Assembly (NCBI GenBank): GCA_044229975.1
Contig: JBGARZ010000007.1
Coordinates: 256,001-320,000 of the forward strand
Origin: Polyangiales bacterium
GTDB taxonomy: Bacteria; Myxococcota_A; Polyangia; Polyangiales; Ga0077539
Direction of reading: 5' to 3'
DNA: 64,000 bases
In this document: positions 33,596 to 42,497 of the stretch, piece after piece
Numbering within the stretch: position 1 is the first letter of the stretch
How the letters are laid out: every line of letters begins with the position of its first letter
The notes under the pieces: model-generated
What the model saw: the letters and a program-made list of their open reading frames with translations, nothing else
Databases searched by the model: none
What the model was told of the DNA's origin: nothing
Position numbers and translations under genes: made by a program

Positions 33596-33608
33596 GAGGC
33601 TACCGGGC

Positions 33609-33874
33609 GGGCCTCACCCCGCTGCGGGACCGGAGTTCGCGTGACCTCGTTGCGAGTGCGTGCAGTCGCTCACTCCGGGCTATTTCACGTGGTCACCTCG
33701 CGGCGCGAGGTTGCAGGATCTCCTGGCTGGCGATGAGCGAGTCGCTGGGTTGCTTGTTGAAACCAGTGCTGCAACCTCGCGCCGCGAGGTGACCACGTGA
33801 AATAGCCCGGAGTGAGCGACTGCACGCGCTCGCAACGAGGTCACGCGAACTCCGGTCCCAGCGGGGTGAGGCCC
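33609..33874. repeat. Long palindromic REPIN/MITE-like element, copy 1
   Basis: Arms 33609-33716 and 33769-33874 are near-perfect reverse complements around a 52-nt loop; homologous to 42263-42492. Confidence 0.92.
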
Positions 33875-34806
33875 TACCGCGCGACGAGCAGCGAGTGCGC
33901 GAAGGGCCACGCGGCGTCGACCCACTGCGCGGCGCAGGTGTAGCCCGACTCGTCGGCCCAGGCGCGCAGCTCGTCGGCGCGGAAGCGGTGGCTCGACTCG
34001 GTCCAGATGCTCTCGGCCTCAGCGAAGGAGATGGCCTCGCCCAGCACGCGCACCTCGCACGCCGTGCGGGCGACGAGGTGCATCTCGATGCGGCGGTCGT
34101 GGGCGTTCCAGCGGGCCTCGTGGGTGAAGTTGGCCAGCGGGAAGTCTGCGTCCCACTCGCGGTTGAGGCGCACCAGAAGGTTGCGGTCGAAGGCCGCCGT
34201 CACCCCGAGCGCGTCGTCGTAGGCGGGGAGCAGCAGCGACGGGTCCTTCTCCAGGTCGGTGGCCAGCAGCAACGCGTCACCGGGCGTGAGCGTGTCGCGG
34301 ACGTCGCGCAGGAAGCCCAGCGCCTCGCGGCGCGCGAAGTTGGACAGGTTGCTGCCGAGGAAGAGCACCAGGCGACGCGCACCGTCGACCCGGGCGGCAC
34401 GACGTAGACCCTCAACGTAGGTGGCCTCGACGGCGCGGACGTCGATGCCGGGGAGGTGTTCGAGCGCGCGCTGGCAGTCGCGCAGGGCGGTGGGGGAGAC
34501 GTCGACGGCGGTGAAGACCGTCGACGGCTGACGGGCGCACACGGCCGGGAGGAAGAGCGCCGCCTTGCGACCGCCGCCCGGACCAAGCTCGATGACATCG
34601 AGCGGACCGTTCAGTGAGCTAACGACATCGGGCGCGTGGGCTTCGATGAGACGGAGGTCGGCGCGGGTGAGCCCGTACTCGGGCAGCTCGGTGATGGCCT
34701 CGAAGAGCGCCGAGCCGAGGGCGTCGTAGAGCAGCGAGGTGGGGAGCGTCTTCGGGGTGGCGCGCAGCCCCTTCAGGATGGCGGCGCCGAGGGCAGGATC
34801 GGTCAC
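33874..34806 (-). CDS. egtD: L-histidine N-alpha-trimethyltransferase (hercynine synthase)
   Basis: GL...PKTLP..LYD..GS.LFE.IT.LPEY, IELGPG, FLGSNLSNF, AYDD..GVTAAF, RIEMHL, IWTESSHRF. GTG 34806 overlaps the egtB stop. Confidence 0.92.
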   Translation of the reverse strand: MTDPALGAAILKGLRATPKTLPTSLLYDALGSALFEAITELPEYGLTRADLRLIEAHAPDVVSSLNGPLDVIELGPGGGRKAALFLPAVCARQPSTVFTAVDVSPTALRDCQRALEHLPGIDVRAVEATYVEGLRRAARVDGARRLVLFLGSNLSNFARREALGFLRDVRDTLTPGDALLLATDLEKDPSLLLPAYDDALGVTAAFDRNLLVRLNREWDADFPLANFTHEARWNAHDRRIEMHLVARTACEVRVLGEAISFAEAESIWTESSHRFRADELRAWADESGYTCAAQWVDAAWPFAHSLLVAR

Positions 34807-36125
34807 GCGGGGCTCCCGTCGTCGACGCAGCGTAGCGTCGCGTACACGTGCGGATAGTGCGGCTGAAACCAGTTGCGAAACGAGCGGCGCAGGAAGGTGG
34901 TCGCGGTGCGCGGCGAAGCGCCCTTGAGCACGAAGTGGCGACCGTCGAAGAAGTCCGCCGAGTACCCGCGATAGAAGGGCAGCGGCGCGAAGCCCTCGAA
35001 GGGAGCGAAGGGCGTGCGGGTCCACTCCCAGCCGTTGCCGAGCATCTCGTCGACGCCGAGCGCGCTCCGGCCCGCGGGGTGCGTGCCGACGGGCGTCGGG
35101 TCGAAGCGCCCGAAGCCGAAGTTGCCGTGCACACCCGCGATGGGTGCTTCGGTGCCCCACGGGAAGGGTCGCTCCGAGCCGTCAGCGTTGGCGTACGCCG
35201 CGCGGTGCCACTGCGCCTCGGTGGGGAGCGACCATCCCTTCCAACGAGCATAGGCGCGAGCCTCGGCGTGGCTCACATACACCGGGCACGCGAGCGGCAA
35301 CGGAACCTCTCCCGCCATCGCCCGCCACCACCATCGACCATCACGACGCACCCAGAACGCCGGGTGTTGGACGCCCTCCCGATCGCGCCACGCGCGGTCG
35401 TCGTCGGACCAGAGCGCGTCGTGGCGATAGCCGCCGTCGTCGAGGAAGGCGAGCCACTCGGCGTTGGTCACCTTGTGCGAGCGAACGCGAAACGCCGGGA
35501 CGTCAATCGTGTGCTCGTCGTACTCGTTGTCCCATCCGCCGTGAGGGTCTTCGGTGCGCGAGCGACCGAGCGTGGCGCGACCGGCGGGGACGTCGATCCA
35601 GTGGGTCGTGGGTTGTGGCGTGTCGTGGAAGGCGGGCGCGGCCACACCCCGGAGAGAGCGCGGTGGGAGGTGGTGCAGGAGGTACGAGAGCGTCTCGGCG
35701 TGCATGAGCCGGTGCTCGACGGCGAGGCGCGCGGCCCAGGCGCCAGAGAGCCAGCCGGTGAGCGGCGCGGTGGCGATGACGGCGTCGACGTCGACGCGAC
35801 AGGCGGCGATCCACGCGCGGATGGCATGCGTGGCGGGCCAGTCGTTGGCGGTGTCGCGGGGGAGGTCGCCGTGGGTGGGGTCGATGCCGAAGGCGAAGAG
35901 GCGCTCGAACTCCTCGTGGCGTGAGGGCGCGTGGAGGCAGTCGCGCGCGAGGAGGTTGAAGTCGAAGGCGTCGAGGTGGCCGAGGTAGAAGACGAGCCGG
36001 TGACGCTCGGCGACGGGGCGTGAGAGCAGGGCCGCGGGGGTGAGCGCCTCGAAGAGCGCGTCGGTCTGGCGGCGGGCGGAGTGGAGGTCGCGGGCGAGCG
36101 CGTCGCGGATCGGGTCGCGGGTCAC
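34803..36125 (-). CDS. egtB: Non-heme iron sulfoxide synthase (DinB_2 + FGE-sulfatase), ergothioneine pathway
   Basis: FYLGH and EHRLMHAE iron ligands, WDNE, LPTEAQW, GNGWEWT, YRGYSADFFD, RRSFRNWF; coupled to egtD. Confidence 0.85.
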   Translation of the reverse strand: MTRDPIRDALARDLHSARRQTDALFEALTPAALLSRPVAERHRLVFYLGHLDAFDFNLLARDCLHAPSRHEEFERLFAFGIDPTHGDLPRDTANDWPATHAIRAWIAACRVDVDAVIATAPLTGWLSGAWAARLAVEHRLMHAETLSYLLHHLPPRSLRGVAAPAFHDTPQPTTHWIDVPAGRATLGRSRTEDPHGGWDNEYDEHTIDVPAFRVRSHKVTNAEWLAFLDDGGYRHDALWSDDDRAWRDREGVQHPAFWVRRDGRWWWRAMAGEVPLPLACPVYVSHAEARAYARWKGWSLPTEAQWHRAAYANADGSERPFPWGTEAPIAGVHGNFGFGRFDPTPVGTHPAGRSALGVDEMLGNGWEWTRTPFAPFEGFAPLPFYRGYSADFFDGRHFVLKGASPRTATTFLRRSFRNWFQPHYPHVYATLRCVDDGSPA

Positions 36126-36269
36126 AGGGCCATCCTTACGCCATCGGTGGGAGAGCGGTAACGGACTCCCACTGTTGCCCGGAGGGTTGAGCCGCCAGTG
36201 CCGATGGGAGAAGGGAGCGATGGACGGGCGGCGCGCGATGTTCTAGCGATGCGCGCACAGGAGCCAACG

Positions 36270-36998
36270 ATGGAATACGAGCTGTTCTACTGGCCGGGAA
36301 TCCAGGGGCGTGGGGAGTTCATCCGGCTGGCGTTCGAGGACGCGGGCGCGCCCTATGTGGACGTCGCGCGCGGCGCAGAGGGTGTGCAGGGCATCGTGCG
36401 GATGCTCAAGGGCGAAGGCTTCGACGGGCCGACGCCGTTTGCGCCGCCCATCCTGCGCCATGGTCCGCTGGTCATCGCGCAGGTGGCCAACATCCTCCAC
36501 TACGTCTCGTCGAAGGTGGGGCTCGCGCCCACGCACGAGTCGGAGCGCCACCTCGCGTTGCAGCTCCAGCTCACCGTCGCCGACCTCGTGGCGGAGGTTC
36601 ACGACACGCACCACCCGGTGAGCACGGCGCTCTACTACGAAGACCAGAAGGACGAGGCGCGGCGGCGCACGGCGAGCTTCGTGCTGGAGCGCCTGCCGAA
36701 GTATCTCGGGTACTTCGAGAAGGTGCTGACCCGCAACGGCGGAGACCATCTCGTGGGCGCCGACGTGAGCTACGTCGACCTGTCGATCTTCCAGGTGGTG
36801 GAGGGGCTGCGCTACGCGTTTCCGCGGGCGATGGTGGCGGTCGAGCCGAAGGCGCCGAAGGTCATCGCGCTGCACGACCGGGTGGCCGCGCGACCGGGCG
36901 TGGCGGCGTACGTGAAGTCACCGCGGCGCCTGGCCTTCAACGAGAACGGGATCTTCCGCCGCTACAAGGAGCTCGACCTCGCGCCCGGCGAGGAGTGA
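36270..36998 (+). CDS. Glutathione S-transferase family protein
   Basis: AGGAG RBS; YWPGIQGRGEFIRL, FAPPIL, AQVANIL, SYVDLSIFQ, GIFRRY. Confidence 0.9.
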   Translation: MEYELFYWPGIQGRGEFIRLAFEDAGAPYVDVARGAEGVQGIVRMLKGEGFDGPTPFAPPILRHGPLVIAQVANILHYVSSKVGLAPTHESERHLALQLQLTVADLVAEVHDTHHPVSTALYYEDQKDEARRRTASFVLERLPKYLGYFEKVLTRNGGDHLVGADVSYVDLSIFQVVEGLRYAFPRAMVAVEPKAPKVIALHDRVAARPGVAAYVKSPRRLAFNENGIFRRYKELDLAPGEE

Positions 36999-37002
36999 GA
37001 CG

Positions 37003-38475
37003 TCAGCGCCCTCCACGCAGCGGTCGCGGCACCAGCGCCCGCTCCAGCAGCGCGAAGAGAACCTGCGTGACGATCGCCAGCGCGGCGGCGGGCAACGCGC
37101 CCTCCATGATGGTCGGCGTCGAGTCCAGGCGGATGCCCCTCAGGATGGGCTGCCCGTAGCCTCCCGCGCCGACCATCGCGCCGAGCGTGGCGGTGCCGAC
37201 GTTGATGACGGCGGCGGTCTTCACGCCCGCGAGGATGGACGGCAGCGCGAGCGGCAGCTCCACCAGGCGCAGCCGCGCCCACGGTGGCAGACCGAGAGCC
37301 TCGGCGCTCTCGACGAGCGACGCGGGGATGCCGCGCAGGCCCGCGACGGTGTTCTGCACGATGGGGAGCAGCGAGTAGAGGAAGAGGGCCGCGACGGCGG
37401 GCGCCGCGCCGATGCCCAGCACCGGGATGAGCAGCACCAGCAGCGCCAACGACGGAACCGTCTGCAACACCCCCGCGACCCCGAGCACGGCGGCACCGAG
37501 GCGAGGGCGCTTCGCCGCGGCGACGCCCAACGGGACGGCGCACAACACCGCAGCGAACAGAGAGGCGAGAACGAGCGCGAGGTGCTCGCGGGTGCGGTCG
37601 GCGATGCGCGAGAGGCGGCCCTCGGCGGCGACGACGGTGCGCAGCCCGCGGTGCTCCTCCAGCCACGCGGCGGCGACTGCGCCTTCGGTGCGATGGCGTC
37701 GCTTCACCTGATCGTTGAGGTCGATCATCGCGGGGGCGTCGAGGCTGCCGCCGAGCGACTCCAGCGCCCGCGCGCACGACGGCGACCGACGCGCGAGGTC
37801 GGAGCGGTAGAGCAGCACCGCGGAGTACTCGGGGAAGTAACCGCGGTCGTCCGCGAGCACGCGCAGGTGGTGCCACGCGATCTCGGCGTCGGTGGTGTAG
37901 AGGTCGGTCACCTGGATGGCGCCCGACGCGAGGGCCCGGTAGGCGAGGTCGTGGTCCATGCCGCGCACCTCGTGTTGCGGGAGCTCGTAGCGGGCGCGCA
38001 GTCCGGGCCACCCGTCGGCGCGGTCGAGAAACTCGTGTGAGAGGCCCAGCACGAGGTCGGGCTGCCCGCGCAGGTCGCTGAGGGTGCGCAGTCCGCGCGC
38101 GGTCGCGAGCGACTCAGGGACGCCCAGCGCGTAGGTGTTGTTGAACCCGAGCGGGGCCGTCATGGAGACGCCCTCACGGGCGAGGGCGCGGCGCAGCCCC
38201 GTGAGGTCGCGCGCGTCGACGCCGCGGAGGAGCTCGGCGGCGAGCGTGCCGGTGTACTCGGGGTAGACGTCGATCTCGCCGGCGCGGAGGGCGCGCCAGA
38301 GGACGGCTGTTCCACCGAGCTGGCGGCGGTGCTCGGTGGTGGAGCCGGTGGCGGCGCAGGCGCGCGTGGCGACCTCGCCGAGGATGACGCCTTCGGTGAA
38401 GTTCTTGGAGCCGATGCGTACCGCGCGAGGGGCGCACCCGAGGGCCACGAAGAGGAGAAGGAGGAGGGGCCTCAC
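37003..38475 (-). CDS. Fused substrate-binding + permease subunit of a quaternary-amine (OpuBC/OsmF-like) ABC importer
   Basis: Lipobox-like LGC, IGSKNFTE, YPEYTGT, NNTYAL, YTTD, FPEY; permease QTVPSLALL, EAA-like ESAEALG, GAGGYG. Confidence 0.9.
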   Translation of the reverse strand: MRPLLLLLFVALGCAPRAVRIGSKNFTEGVILGEVATRACAATGSTTEHRRQLGGTAVLWRALRAGEIDVYPEYTGTLAAELLRGVDARDLTGLRRALAREGVSMTAPLGFNNTYALGVPESLATARGLRTLSDLRGQPDLVLGLSHEFLDRADGWPGLRARYELPQHEVRGMDHDLAYRALASGAIQVTDLYTTDAEIAWHHLRVLADDRGYFPEYSAVLLYRSDLARRSPSCARALESLGGSLDAPAMIDLNDQVKRRHRTEGAVAAAWLEEHRGLRTVVAAEGRLSRIADRTREHLALVLASLFAAVLCAVPLGVAAAKRPRLGAAVLGVAGVLQTVPSLALLVLLIPVLGIGAAPAVAALFLYSLLPIVQNTVAGLRGIPASLVESAEALGLPPWARLRLVELPLALPSILAGVKTAAVINVGTATLGAMVGAGGYGQPILRGIRLDSTPTIMEGALPAAALAIVTQVLFALLERALVPRPLRGGR

Positions 38476-39230
38476 GACGTCACCCCCGCGTCACTCTGCG
38501 CGCGGAAGAAGTCGCGCACGAAGGGGTCGGCCGGCGTGGACTCCAGCTCCGCGAAGGTCCCCTGCTGCACCACGCGGCCGTCGCGCAGCAGCACGATGGT
38601 GTCCCCGAAATGCCGCGCTTCGCGGAGATCGTGCGTGACCAGTACGACCGTCTTCGCCAGCGAGCGGAACGCGTCGCGCAGGTCGCGCTGCAACTCGGCG
38701 CGCACCATCGGGTCGAGCGCCCCGAGCGGTTCGTCGAGGAGCAGCACCTCCGGGTCGAGGACCAACGCCCGCATCAACGCCACACGCTGCCGCTGACCAC
38801 CCGAGAGCGCGTCGGGGTGGCGGTCGAGCAGCGCCGCGGGGAGGCGCGCCAGCGAGGCGAGCTCGGTCACGCGGGCGTCGAGGTCGGCGGTCGGTCGGCG
38901 CAGCCAGCGCGGGAGGAGCGTGACGTTGTCGCGGGCCGTGAGGTGGGGAAAGAGCCCGCCCTCCTGGATGACGTAACCGATGCGTCGACGGAGGGCCTCG
39001 ACGTTGGCGGGGGAGGGGGTCTCGCCGAGCACACGGAGGGCTCCGGCGGTCGGGGCGATGAGGCCGTTGATGAGGCGCAGCAGGGTGCTCTTGCCGCAGC
39101 CGCTCGGTCCGAGGAGCACCGTGGTGCGACCGGCGGGGATGTCGAGGTCGATGGGGCCGAGGGCGATCGCGTCGCCGTAGCGGCGGGTCACGCCGAGCAG
39201 GGACACCGCGGCTGGCGGGGCAGTGGGCAT
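38472..39230 (-). CDS. ABC ATP-binding protein (OpuA/OsmV-like)
   Basis: GPSGCGKST, LRRRIGYVIQEGGLFPH, LSGGQRQR, LLDEPLGALDP, VTHD. Confidence 0.93.
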   Translation of the reverse strand: MPTAPPAAVSLLGVTRRYGDAIALGPIDLDIPAGRTTVLLGPSGCGKSTLLRLINGLIAPTAGALRVLGETPSPANVEALRRRIGYVIQEGGLFPHLTARDNVTLLPRWLRRPTADLDARVTELASLARLPAALLDRHPDALSGGQRQRVALMRALVLDPEVLLLDEPLGALDPMVRAELQRDLRDAFRSLAKTVVLVTHDLREARHFGDTIVLLRDGRVVQQGTFAELESTPADPFVRDFFRAQSDAGVTS

Positions 39231-39298
39231 CGGGGCGCGCGATGGTCGCACGCATCCCGTCGCGGGGGTCGCGCGGCTCGCGTAGGCTCCGAGGCGCC

Positions 39299-39838
39299 AT
39301 GGGATTGTTGACGATCATCGGGCTGTTGGTGGTGGGCTTCAGCGTCGGCGTGTCCAGCGGGCTGCTGGGCATCGGCGGCGGGGTGCTGGTGATCCCGGCG
39401 CTGGTGATGGGCTTCGGCTTCTCGCAGCAGCGGGCCGTCGGGACGAGCCTCGCGATGCTGCTGCCGCCCATCGGCATCTTCGCGGTGCTGCGCTACGCGC
39501 GCGGCGGCCACGTCGACTGGGCCGCGGCGATGATCATGGCGGCGGCCTTCGCGGGCGGCGCCTTCGTGGGCGCGTGGGCCGTCACGCGGGGTTGGGTCTC
39601 CGAGCGCGCGCTGCGGACGGTGTTCGCGGCGTTTCTGCTCTACGTGGTAGGCAACCTGCTGTTTCGCGGGGAGAAGCGCGTCTGGTCGGCGCTGGTGACG
39701 CTGGGCCTCGGCGCGGCCTACGGGCTCGCGTACCTCGGTCTGCGCGCCGCGGGTCGGAAGTGGGAGCGCGAGACCAAGCTGTCGGCGATCTACGCCAAGC
39801 AGATCGAGGCGCCGGTGCCGATGGAGTACGAGATCTAG
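39299..39838 (+). CDS. Half-size TauE/SafE (sulfite exporter/TSUP) family protein
   Basis: SGLLGIGGGVLVIPAL, QQRAVGTSL, G.FVGA. Confidence 0.85.
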   Translation: MGLLTIIGLLVVGFSVGVSSGLLGIGGGVLVIPALVMGFGFSQQRAVGTSLAMLLPPIGIFAVLRYARGGHVDWAAAMIMAAAFAGGAFVGAWAVTRGWVSERALRTVFAAFLLYVVGNLLFRGEKRVWSALVTLGLGAAYGLAYLGLRAAGRKWERETKLSAIYAKQIEAPVPMEYEI

Positions 39839-40083
39839 CGACGGTCGCGCCCGAGGCGCTGGATGGCGTCCCTGATCGCCTCGTGGCGGGTGAGCGTCGG
39901 GGCGCGCTTCAGCTCGTGGCTGACGAGGCGCTCGGCCATCGCGTGATCGCCGCGCACCAGCCGCATGAGCCGCAGGAAGTCGTCGTCTTCTTTCGCTCTC
40001 GGCGACCCGAAGAAGACCCACCAGGCCACGACCGCGCCGGCGATCAGCAGCGCGATGAGCGTCAGCGTCGGGTTGTGTCTCAT
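39835..40083 (-). CDS. Small single-TM protein
   Basis: ATG 40083; N-terminal TM then L..LVRGD..MAERL...E..RAP...AI.RL.RDR helical motif. Confidence 0.65.
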   Translation of the reverse strand: MRHNPTLTLIALLIAGAVVAWWVFFGSPRAKEDDDFLRLMRLVRGDHAMAERLVSHELKRAPTLTRHEAIRDAIQRLGRDRR

Positions 40084-40195
40084 GACGCGAGCATCCGTCG
40101 TCGGTGGCGCCGCGCGCAATCCCCGATGCTGCACGTCTCGACCTGCGCCTGATGCATCGCCCGATGGGGCGGGCTATGGCTGTCGTGGCGCAACG

Positions 40196-40639
40196 ATGGC
40201 GACCCCGCGCGAGACGCAGCTCCCCCTGTTGACCGTCGACCCGCGCGAGCGCGGCCGCGGGTTGCTCGCCGTCTGTCGGTTGGTGGTCCGGTCGTTGGAG
40301 CGGGCGCGGCGGCTCTCCGACGACCGCCCGGAGCTGGCGCTCGCCACGCTCGAACGCTGGCTGGACCGGGACGACGGCCCCGCGGAGCTGCACGAGGCGA
40401 TGGAGCTGATGGTGCAGGCGACCTTCGACGATCGCGAGGCGGTGGCCGCGACGCGGTGCGTGCTGTGGGCGATGCGGGTCAACGTGATCCACCCGGCGCG
40501 CGCGAGCGACGTGGCGACGCGCGTGATCGACGGCGCAGTGGAGGTGCTGGTGGCGTTGGGCGAAGAGCCGGAGGCCGCGGCGGCGCAGGTCGACCTCGCG
40601 TACCGCGCGGGCGCGGACGGTCAGGCGTTGGACCAGTAG
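40196..40639 (+). CDS. Hypothetical helical protein
   Basis: ATG 40196; high GC3; convergent overlap with the GST gene. Confidence 0.6.
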   Translation: MATPRETQLPLLTVDPRERGRGLLAVCRLVVRSLERARRLSDDRPELALATLERWLDRDDGPAELHEAMELMVQATFDDREAVAATRCVLWAMRVNVIHPARASDVATRVIDGAVEVLVALGEEPEAAAAQVDLAYRAGADGQALDQ

Positions 40640-41340
40640 CGGGCGCGGCCCCGCTCGACGTAGGCCACGAGGTCGGGGAGCGCCTTCAGGCGGGCACGCA
40701 CCGCGTTGTCGAAGGGAGCATCGTGCAGCGAGTACAGGAAGGACCACACCGTCGCATCGACGGTGCGCGGCGCGTCGCCCAGCACCCATGGCCCCGACCC
40801 GATGAGCTCGTTGAGCGACTCGACGAGCTCGATGGCCAGCGCCTCGACCTCGGCGACGGAGTGACGCCCGGTCCCTTGACCCTTGAGGGACTTCTTCACC
40901 TGCCCGCGGACGAAGTTGCTGATGGTTCCGGCCAGGAAGGCGGGGGGACCGCCCGGTCCCGCGAAGAGCTGCTTGAGCGCCGGGGCCATCACCGTCCACC
41001 CGCGGTCGTCCTGCCAGCGCAGAAACAGCGTGGTGAAGTACATGTGCTCTTCGACCATCGACTGGATGGCGCGGCCGAGCGCGCGGTCGCGAGGGGAGAG
41101 CCCCGCGTCGAGGTCGCCGTGCTTCTTCGACAGGTGCCGGATGATGAAGGTCGTGTCGCCGAGCAGCGTTCCGTCGTCGTCGACGATGTAGGGGATCTTC
41201 CCCTTCGGCGCCTTGCGCGGGTCACCGGGCGCGAAGCGGTACTCGACGCCCGCCATGCGGCACCAGGTCGCGAGCTTCACCACGAAGGGGCTCAGGTCGA
41301 TCATGCCGAGGGCCGCGTTGAACTGGTGGATGGTGATCAT
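40621..41340 (-). CDS. Metaxin/FAX-like glutathione S-transferase
   Basis: SPFVVKL, APKGKIPYI, GDT, MVEEH.YF, GTGRHS, GDAP..VDA. Confidence 0.88.
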   Translation of the reverse strand: MITIHQFNAALGMIDLSPFVVKLATWCRMAGVEYRFAPGDPRKAPKGKIPYIVDDDGTLLGDTTFIIRHLSKKHGDLDAGLSPRDRALGRAIQSMVEEHMYFTTLFLRWQDDRGWTVMAPALKQLFAGPGGPPAFLAGTISNFVRGQVKKSLKGQGTGRHSVAEVEALAIELVESLNELIGSGPWVLGDAPRTVDATVWSFLYSLHDAPFDNAVRARLKALPDLVAYVERGRARYWSNA

Positions 41341-41415: not shown

Positions 41416-42279
41416 ATGCCCCTCGAAGGTCGCGGCGAACACTACTCCCGTCTGCGCGGCGCCATCGAGTGGACGCTGGCCCACCTCTACCGCGGCGGCT
41501 GGTCGGCCCGTGTGGTCCGTCGGCTCGGGCTCCAGTCGCCGGTGCGCGTCGTCCGCCACCGTGTCGCCGTCGCGCGCTGGCCCGCCGGCCTCCGCCCGCT
41601 GCGCATCGCCTTCGCGTCCGACCTGCACGCGGGGCCGACGACGCACCCGTCGCTCCTCGACGAGGTCGTGCGCGCCATCGAGGACGCTTCTCCCGACGTG
41701 GTGCTGCTGGGCGGCGACTACGTGTTCATGGATGCCCGCGAGGTCGGCGCGCTCACCACGCGGCTCGCTCGACTCCGCGCGACGCCGCAGCGCTTCTGCG
41801 TGATGGGCAACCACGACCTCTGGGCCAACGACGCGCGCATCGCCGACGATCTCTCGGGCGCCGGGTTCGCGCTGCTGCGCAACGGCTCCGTCCATCTCGC
41901 GCCGCCCTTCGACCACGTCTCCATCTGCGGCCTCGACGAGCCCTGGACGGGCTCTCCCGACCCTCGCGCCACCTTCGCCGACGCCCGCGACGTTCGCGTG
42001 CTGCTGGTGCACGCGCCGTCGGGTCTGCTGCTCACGGGCGATGAGCGCTTCGACCTCGCGCTCTGCGGCCACACCCACGGCGGCCACATCGCGTTGCCCG
42101 GTGGTGTTCCCATCGTGTCGGTGGGGCCGCTCAGTCGACGGTACCCGCACGGTGAGCACCGCCTGCCCGACGGCGCGACGCTCATCGTGAGCCGCGGCGT
42201 CGGCGCGACCGAGAGCCCGCTGCGGCTCTTCGCCGACCCCGACGTGCGCGTCGTCGAACTGGGGCCGGAGTTCGCGTGA
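41416..42279 (+). CDS. Metallophosphoesterase (YkuE/YaeI-like)
   Basis: SDLH, GGDY, GNHD, LLVHAP, CGHTHGG, VSRGVG. Last codons lie inside the palindromic element. Confidence 0.9.
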   Translation: MPLEGRGEHYSRLRGAIEWTLAHLYRGGWSARVVRRLGLQSPVRVVRHRVAVARWPAGLRPLRIAFASDLHAGPTTHPSLLDEVVRAIEDASPDVVLLGGDYVFMDAREVGALTTRLARLRATPQRFCVMGNHDLWANDARIADDLSGAGFALLRNGSVHLAPPFDHVSICGLDEPWTGSPDPRATFADARDVRVLLVHAPSGLLLTGDERFDLALCGHTHGGHIALPGGVPIVSVGPLSRRYPHGEHRLPDGATLIVSRGVGATESPLRLFADPDVRVVELGPEFA

Positions 42280-42492
42280 CCCCAATGAGTCGAAGTGCAG
42301 TCGCTCACTCCGGGCTATTTCACGTGGTCACCTCGCTGCGCGAGGTTGCAGGAAGCCTCCGCCGACAATGAACGAGTCGATGGGTTGTTCGTTGAAACCA
42401 GTGCTGCAACCTCGCGCAGCGAGGTGACCACGTGAAATAGCCCGGAGTGAGCGACTGCACTTCGACTCATTGGGGTCACGCAAACTCCGGCC
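42263..42492. repeat. Long palindromic REPIN/MITE-like element, copy 2
   Basis: Arms 42263-42351 and 42404-42492 (89 bp, one mismatch) around a 52-nt loop; same orientation as copy 1. Confidence 0.92.
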
Positions 42493-42497
42493 ACAGC

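Follow-up and report, generated by a model that had tools for sequence, protein, structure and literature searches.

A fused ABC importer linked to ergothioneine genes in a Polyangiales bacterium, with a possible role in histidine-betaine salvage

The stretch of DNA analyzed here (the window) comprises 64,000 nucleotides from a Polyangiales bacterium (GenBank assembly GCA_044229975.1, contig JBGARZ010000007.1, positions 256,001 to 320,000) and carries the predicted genes of a type IV ergothioneine pathway together with a fused ATP-binding cassette (ABC) importer of the quaternary-amine class. The locus combines biosynthetic enzymes of known kinds with an importer subfamily that is widespread, uncharacterized and associated with the hercynine pathway. 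The gene identities, the type IV motif of the synthase, the recurring linkage of importer and pathway, and the near-restriction of the importer family to genomes with egtD are established from the sequences. It appears probable, although not strongly so, that the importer salvages a histidine betaine from outside the cell, either ergothioneine or hercynine, its precursor without the sulfur.

Hercynine is the product of histidine trimethylation by EgtD, and a pyridoxal phosphate (PLP)-dependent C-S lyase frees ergothioneine from hercynylcysteine sulfoxide. In the proposed scheme, EgtD and the type IV synthase would make ergothioneine from histidine and cysteine, with a lyase encoded elsewhere in the genome performing the release. 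Given that EgtB-IV couples cysteine to C2 of hercynine (PMC11030361), the two enzymes are predicted to yield hercynylcysteine sulfoxide, and ergothioneine if the lyase is supplied. The fused importer would recapture ergothioneine or hercynine from outside, with the aromatic cage of its substrate-binding protein (SBP) domain presumably holding the trimethylammonium group, and with a family-specific histidine (His175) putatively contacting the imidazole or the thione. Uptake would save three S-adenosylmethionine per molecule and would recover compound that was lost from the cell or oxidized.

Linkage of the importer to ergothioneine genes

The SBP-permease contains PF04069 at residues 19-274, after a hydrophobic leader, and PF00528 at residues 313-484. 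The SBP is, therefore, N-terminal and the permease C-terminal, the reverse of the order in EgtU, as the first-pass annotation of this DNA had described. The ATPase, SBP-permease, synthase and egtD genes on the minus strand and the opposite-strand glutathione S-transferase (GST) gene that it listed were likewise all found at their positions. The closest solved structure to the SBP is EgtUC (9o5f, E 2.9e-39), and the SBP scores higher with Streptococcus pneumoniae EgtUC (138 bits) than with the Helicobacter pylori protein (113 bits) or with ProX of Archaeoglobus fulgidus, AfProX (111 bits). The importer family is very large: a threshold of E 1e-30 yields at least 7,998 proteins. Among the matches listed, the closest loci are 86-90% identical (Myxococcales/Myxococcaceae), and the next 77% (Polyangiales).

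The neighborhood of the importer was surveyed in the best 80 of at least 516 relatives obtained from a scan of species genomes. The ATPase adjoins the SBP-permease in 72 of the 80 loci. Within 7 kb of the importer, egtD is present in 28/80 loci, a synthase in 22/80, and either of them in 30/80; when only loci of at least 14 kb are considered, 16 of 40 are linked. The expectation by chance is approximately 0.2 linked loci, assuming one egtD per 5 Mb, and the pairing of the importer with egt genes is thus far above chance. The survey is the one proposed in the first-pass annotation, and linkage is clearly not absent from other genomes. Linked loci occur in several gene orders and in six phyla (Myxococcota, Planctomycetota, Acidobacteriota, Pseudomonadota, Verrucomicrobiota and Poribacteria), and on a FastTree tree of 80 rows the distribution of linkage requires 14 label changes, at least five of them forced by starred branches (L023, a partial copy, was omitted from the SBP alignment and from the tree). 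The commonest neighbors after the ATPase are egtD and the synthase, with egtD being the tighter partner of the two. Eight loci (L025, L027, L033, L036, L041, L054, L061 and L078) carry the importer and egtD with no synthase in the available stretch.

Eighteen of the 22 partner synthases could be typed, nine as EgtB and seven as SenA, all over cut-off, and two as OvoA-like. These three types all use hercynine (PMC11030361), and the fact that the importer is paired with each of them means that the link points to a shared metabolite and not to one gene. The same transporter class has been seen next to such enzymes before: OpuBB/PBP2_AfProX_like transporters lie beside 5.4% of sulfoxide/selenoxide synthases, and ATPases beside 13.6% (Abbott et al. 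2026, PMC13674229, Table 1). In the available part of that paper they are classed as housekeeping genes, without analysis of ligand, subfamily or pocket. In two further loci (L146 and L147, at G016:C83 and G022:C246), a different, unfused betaine-type ABC importer adjoins an OvoA-like synthase that is divergent and has an NWY motif, together with an egtD that is also divergent; these loci appear to be a second case in which an importer of this kind accompanies the pathway.

The association extends to genomes where the genes are apart. Indeed, 46 of the 50 unlinked loci belong to genomes with egtD elsewhere, 38 of them over cut-off. Across 151 genomes sampled evenly from the phylum, egtD was found in 13 of 14 importer genomes versus 53 of 137 without the importer (Fisher p 9e-5), and among 41 relatives in 15/15 versus 17/26 (p 0.015), with both p-values overstated given that kin are not independent. 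The importer family, therefore, belongs mainly to ergothioneine producers, which favors recapture or recycling over scavenging from prey or a substitute supply for non-producers. The predation-specific role in scavenging from prey that had been suggested for this locus is not supported, with members of the family being frequent among Chromatiaceae, Planctomycetota, Rhodospirillaceae and Balneolaceae.

Biosynthetic genes

The egtD gene, of which a single copy was found in the genome, scores 291.9 bits with TIGR03438 against a cut-off of 290.9, and matches PF10017 with E 3e-87. The synthase falls below the curated cut-offs of TIGR03440 (238.5/360 bits), TIGR04344 (260.8/400) and SenA (229.7/420), with the highest of the three scores obtained for the OvoA model. 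Among solved structures, it is closest to those of EgtB-IV, 8vih (E 1.8e-61) and 8vig, and residues R41, Y47, H50, D82, H138, H142, Y385 and N418-W419-F420 fit the EgtB-IV composite motif RxYH--DxHxHYxNWFx; these residues were located by aligning the protein pairwise with 8vih, 8khq and 4x8b, and the motif was taken from PMC11030361. The protein has 440 residues, no C-terminal methyltransferase domain, and is paired with egtD. By cut-offs, closest structures and motif, the synthase is assigned to type IV and is OvoA-like. The earlier designation "egtB" was thus right in that a sulfoxide synthase is present, but not in the sense of a classical EgtB. OvoA itself was rejected as an identity on account of the NWF in place of the motif end F(Y/F)AF, the lack of a fused methyltransferase, the length of 440 residues and the score below the TIGR04344 cut-off. 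SenA was rejected on its score and its unmatched motif; a partial SenB query gave no match in the genome, and senC was not searched for. There is no C-S lyase within the cluster, and such lyases are seldom co-located with synthases (egtE 6.2%, ovoB 4.4%; PMC13674229, Table 1).

The composite motif, the pairing with egtD and the absence of the OvoA methyltransferase domain are shared with the EgtB-IV/EgtD pathway (8VIH, 8VIG). The difference is that the genus in which it is found here is myxobacterial and that its sister genera (G012, G019 and G020) have a classical TIGR03440 EgtB, as seen when the type IV synthase of the genus is compared with L145, L154 and L156. The egtD genes most similar to the present one are those of G012 and G019 (65-69%). 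Taken together, the classical EgtB of the sister genera and the affinity of this egtD suggest that the synthase may have been replaced in situ within the genus. In another relative (G039, L153:1734-4118), EgtD and a sulfoxide synthase are fused in a single open frame of 795 amino acids.

Binding pocket and possible substrates

EgtU/EgtUV (S. pneumoniae EgtUBC 7TXK; H. pylori 8DP6) shares with the importer its two-gene composition, an ATPase and a fused PF04069 SBP/permease, and provides its best PDB match. The two differ in domain order, given that in EgtU the permease is N-terminal and the SBP C-terminal (PMC12922746), and in distribution, given that homologues of SpEgtU occur almost exclusively in Firmicutes (PMC9732360), whereas the importer family is found in many phyla and mostly in genomes with egtD. 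They differ also in the pocket, which retains all nine equivalents of the EgtU contacts (K242, T275, T296, N339, Y341, E375, R379, Y419 and Y443), but has a histidine, His175, that aligns with EgtU P401. This histidine is present in 120/120 proteins and in 79/79 loci. At the same position SpEgtUC and AfProX have a proline, and the unfused SBPs of relatives a proline, alanine or leucine; in the H. pylori protein it has been named as a possible sulfur contact (PMC12922746).

Several observations in the pocket weigh against the salvage of a histidine betaine, as do others from the genome and from the survey. The nine retained contacts are also present in AfProX (with Asp in place of N339) and do not, therefore, discriminate between the two. 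In 120/120 homologues, the positions of G244, F293 and Y337 are occupied by Phe, Tyr and Phe, which is the glycine-betaine pattern of AfProX, and the position of I243, which contacts sulfur in EgtU, varies within the family. The invariance of G244 and the F293/Y337 switch are determinants of EgtU, with Phe at 244 and 337 being of the AfProX type, and the G244F substitution in SpEgtUC lowers the affinity for ergothioneine approximately 100-fold, although it also destabilizes the protein (PMC9732360). The pocket residues are identical in linked and unlinked importers; no pocket signature that separates them was found, and the family has, therefore, probably a single specificity. Beyond the pocket, no PF04069 protein other than the SBP-permease was found in the genome (93% complete), where no BCCT carrier was found either and where no EgtE-type lyase scores over cut-off, with six weak matches to PLP enzymes. 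In the wider survey, 50 of the 80 loci are unlinked, only 13 of the 66 egtD genomes of the phylum sample carry the importer, and five genomes with a member of the family have neither egtD nor EgtB over cut-off; one of the five is 100% complete, with an importer copy that is only 46% identical. By its pocket residues, the SBP is not a canonical EgtU. In favor of the salvage of a histidine betaine, PMC9732360 notes uptake of ergothioneine at lower affinity by H. pylori-type transporters, directly after stating that G244 and the Y-to-F switch are missing from other subclusters. In an alphaproteobacterial importer clade (L063, L065, L074 and L079), the cage residue Y443 is replaced by Asn, and all four of these importers adjoin egtB.

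Given these features, it is possible, if on the unlikely side, that this is an ordinary transporter for glycine betaine or for a broad range of osmoprotectants, kept near the egt genes by a shared stress regulation or because hercynine and ergothioneine double as osmolytes. AfProX (1SW1/1SW2) shares with the importer the residues at 244, 293 and 337 and the four-tyrosine cage, databases name the homologues osmoprotectant or glycine-betaine transporters, and the fact that no other OpuAC-family SBP and no BCCT carrier was found means that the importer may have to serve osmoprotection, which keeps this explanation alive. The importer differs from AfProX, however, in the fusion of its SBP to the permease, in the invariant His in place of Pro at 401 and in its tie to egt/sen genes, and it scores lower with AfProX (111 bits) than with EgtUC (138 bits). 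Moreover, a general osmolyte pump would not be expected to be nearly restricted to egtD genomes, and inspection by eye of the 45 largest neighbor clusters of the importer loci recognized no gene for osmolyte synthesis. CBS domains have a role in the osmoregulated OpuA, and a Pfam search found none in the ATPase. In engineered Corynebacterium glutamicum, ergothioneine titers rose with osmotic pressure, but no growth benefit was found under osmotic stress (PMC12689799). That the importer lies next to egtBD by a local accident of the genus is hardly credible and already refuted: the unlinked majority of the loci and the separation of importer and egtD on different contigs in G008, G015, G019 and G021 would fit such an accident, but not the recurrence of the pairing in six phyla, with several gene orders and three synthase types, or its tabulation at 5.4% over all NCBI synthases (PMC13674229, Table 1).

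Within the salvage of histidine betaines, a narrower form that we regard as doubtful is that the whole family is a producer-side pump preferring hercynine and feeding a recycling loop through whichever synthase the cell has. Ergothioneine or selenoneine leaving the cytoplasm would lose its sulfur or selenium on oxidation and return as hercynine to be loaded again, with the invariant His175 replacing the thione-reading surface of EgtU. Such a preference would account for the confinement to egtD genomes, for the fact that EgtB-II, EgtB-IV and SenA all serve as partners, and for the relaxed sulfur-contact residues. Hercynine has been called a marker of ergothioneine oxidation (PMC12922746). Neither a characterized member of the family nor a hercynine importer was found among the listings of the open-access library searched.

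It is improbable that the importer, egtBD, both GSTs and the TauE protein act together as one module in which the GSTs use ergothioneine and the compound comes from prey. GST1 lends some support to this idea, given that it lies beside the synthase in 6/8 same-genus genomes and that, outside the genus, it immediately precedes EgtB in G020 and in the metagenome locus L180, and the ATPase gene in G019. These, however, amount to only 2/16 genomes outside the genus and 1/77 more distant metagenome loci (24 of the 77 being at least 6 kb long), a linkage that could be old family synteny, and GST1 is present in only 3/80 importer loci, all from close kin. No GST appears in Table 1 of PMC13674229, and the importer family, as seen above, is common in non-predatory groups. 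Furthermore, the genome has gshB over cut-off and two GCS2 ligases (PF04262 was not found in it), for which reason the idea that a GST was forced onto ergothioneine by missing glutathione was rejected and ordinary glutathione chemistry is the simplest reading. Most likely, GST1 acts with glutathione and shares with the synthase a promoter region from which the two genes diverge. Of the earlier suggestion that GST-fold enzymes act on ergothioneine there remains, thus, a weakly recurring adjacency. TauE and GST2 are in 0/80 importer loci, and their orthologues lie elsewhere in relatives: those of TauE in 5/8 same-genus genomes, all five on other contigs, and those of GST2 in 2/5 genomes searched (G001 and G003), both on other contigs. 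They were rejected as parts of the module that the first-pass annotation had placed them in, and are chance neighbors. From the combined make-or-scavenge module proposed there, it is the linkage of the importer with the egt genes that stands, while TauE, GST2 and the role in predation are not supported.

Locus layout, neighboring genes and significance

The core genes form two minus-strand pairs, ATPase/SBP-permease and synthase/egtD, with a 4-nt overlap within each (Table 1). GST1 sits between the pairs, with its end 4 bp from the permease stop (convergent) and its start 144 bp from the synthase start (divergent). Four genomes (G001, G003, G004 and G007) keep the complete series ATPase, SBP-permease, GST1, synthase, egtD; in G005 it is interrupted by the end of a contig, and in G008 GST1, synthase and egtD are together, apart from the importer; TauE and GST2 are not near these stretches in any of the six genomes. 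A half-size TauE had been correctly recognized, with its 179 residues covering profile positions 1-142 of 237, but the gene is on the plus strand and faces away from the importer, divergent from the ATPase with 68 bp between them. It is parted from GST2 by two hypothetical open reading frames (ORFs). GST2, previously described as metaxin-like, is present as a GST, with IsoI/StyI-type enzymes as its best named matches (9qd3, E 1e-23) and Tom37/metaxin as a weaker Pfam match. A promoter and terminator scan gave no signal exceeding shuffles.

Table 1. Genes of the locus, with positions in the window
Feature	Position	Strand	Evidence	Place in the locus
egtD, histidine N-alpha-trimethylase, predicted hercynine maker	33874..34806	-	TIGR03438, PF10017	core
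Non-heme iron sulfoxide synthase, OvoA-like branch, EgtB type IV by motif	34803..36125	-	8vih/8vig, composite motif	core
GST1, common bacterial GST	36270..36998	+	closest structure 3h1n	kept neighbor within genus, weak link beyond
Fused SBP-permease, quaternary-amine ABC importer	37003..38475	-	PF04069 + PF00528, EgtUC 9o5f	core
ABC ATPase of importer	38472..39230	-	PF00005; alternative GTG start 39251	core
Half-size TauE/SafE membrane protein	39299..39838	+	PF01925 E 4.7e-21	chance neighbor
Small ORF, one hydrophobic segment	39835-40083	-	no significant Pfam match	hypothetical
Small ORF	40193-40639	+	no significant Pfam match	hypothetical
GST2, IsoI/StyI-like, metaxin-type fold family	40621..41340	-	9qd3; NF049950 below cut-off	chance neighbor

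A near-perfect palindromic repeat of approximately 240-270 bp, at 33596-33874 and 42259-42497, brackets the whole block. The genome contains 42 merged matches to it, of which 38 are at least 180 bp long, whereas no match was found in the loci of the 27 relatives searched. The repeat resembles a large REP- or MITE-like element (repetitive extragenic palindrome or miniature inverted-repeat transposable element) and may have caused local rearrangement. In many relatives (L111, L112, L124, L149 and L154-L156), egtD is followed by a small gene that reads as DUF427-like, without an NCBIfam match. Here this gene is on another contig (G000:C3:39072-39335) and the palindrome occupies its place after egtD. 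DUF427 is found beside 5.7% of synthases (PMC13674229).

The kinds of biosynthetic gene present are already known and their co-location with such transporters is in print (PMC13674229), which limits the surprise of the locus. What would be new, if the salvage of histidine betaines is correct, is a second widespread subfamily of importers tied to producers, meaning that ergothioneine, selenoneine or hercynine is taken back up or recycled by the producers themselves. Known bacterial ergothioneine importers have been described mostly in bacteria that do not produce it. Thousands of transporters now named for osmoprotectants would then be re-annotated, and the finding would bear on the question of why bacteria maintain a second thiol, and a costly one, in addition to glutathione.

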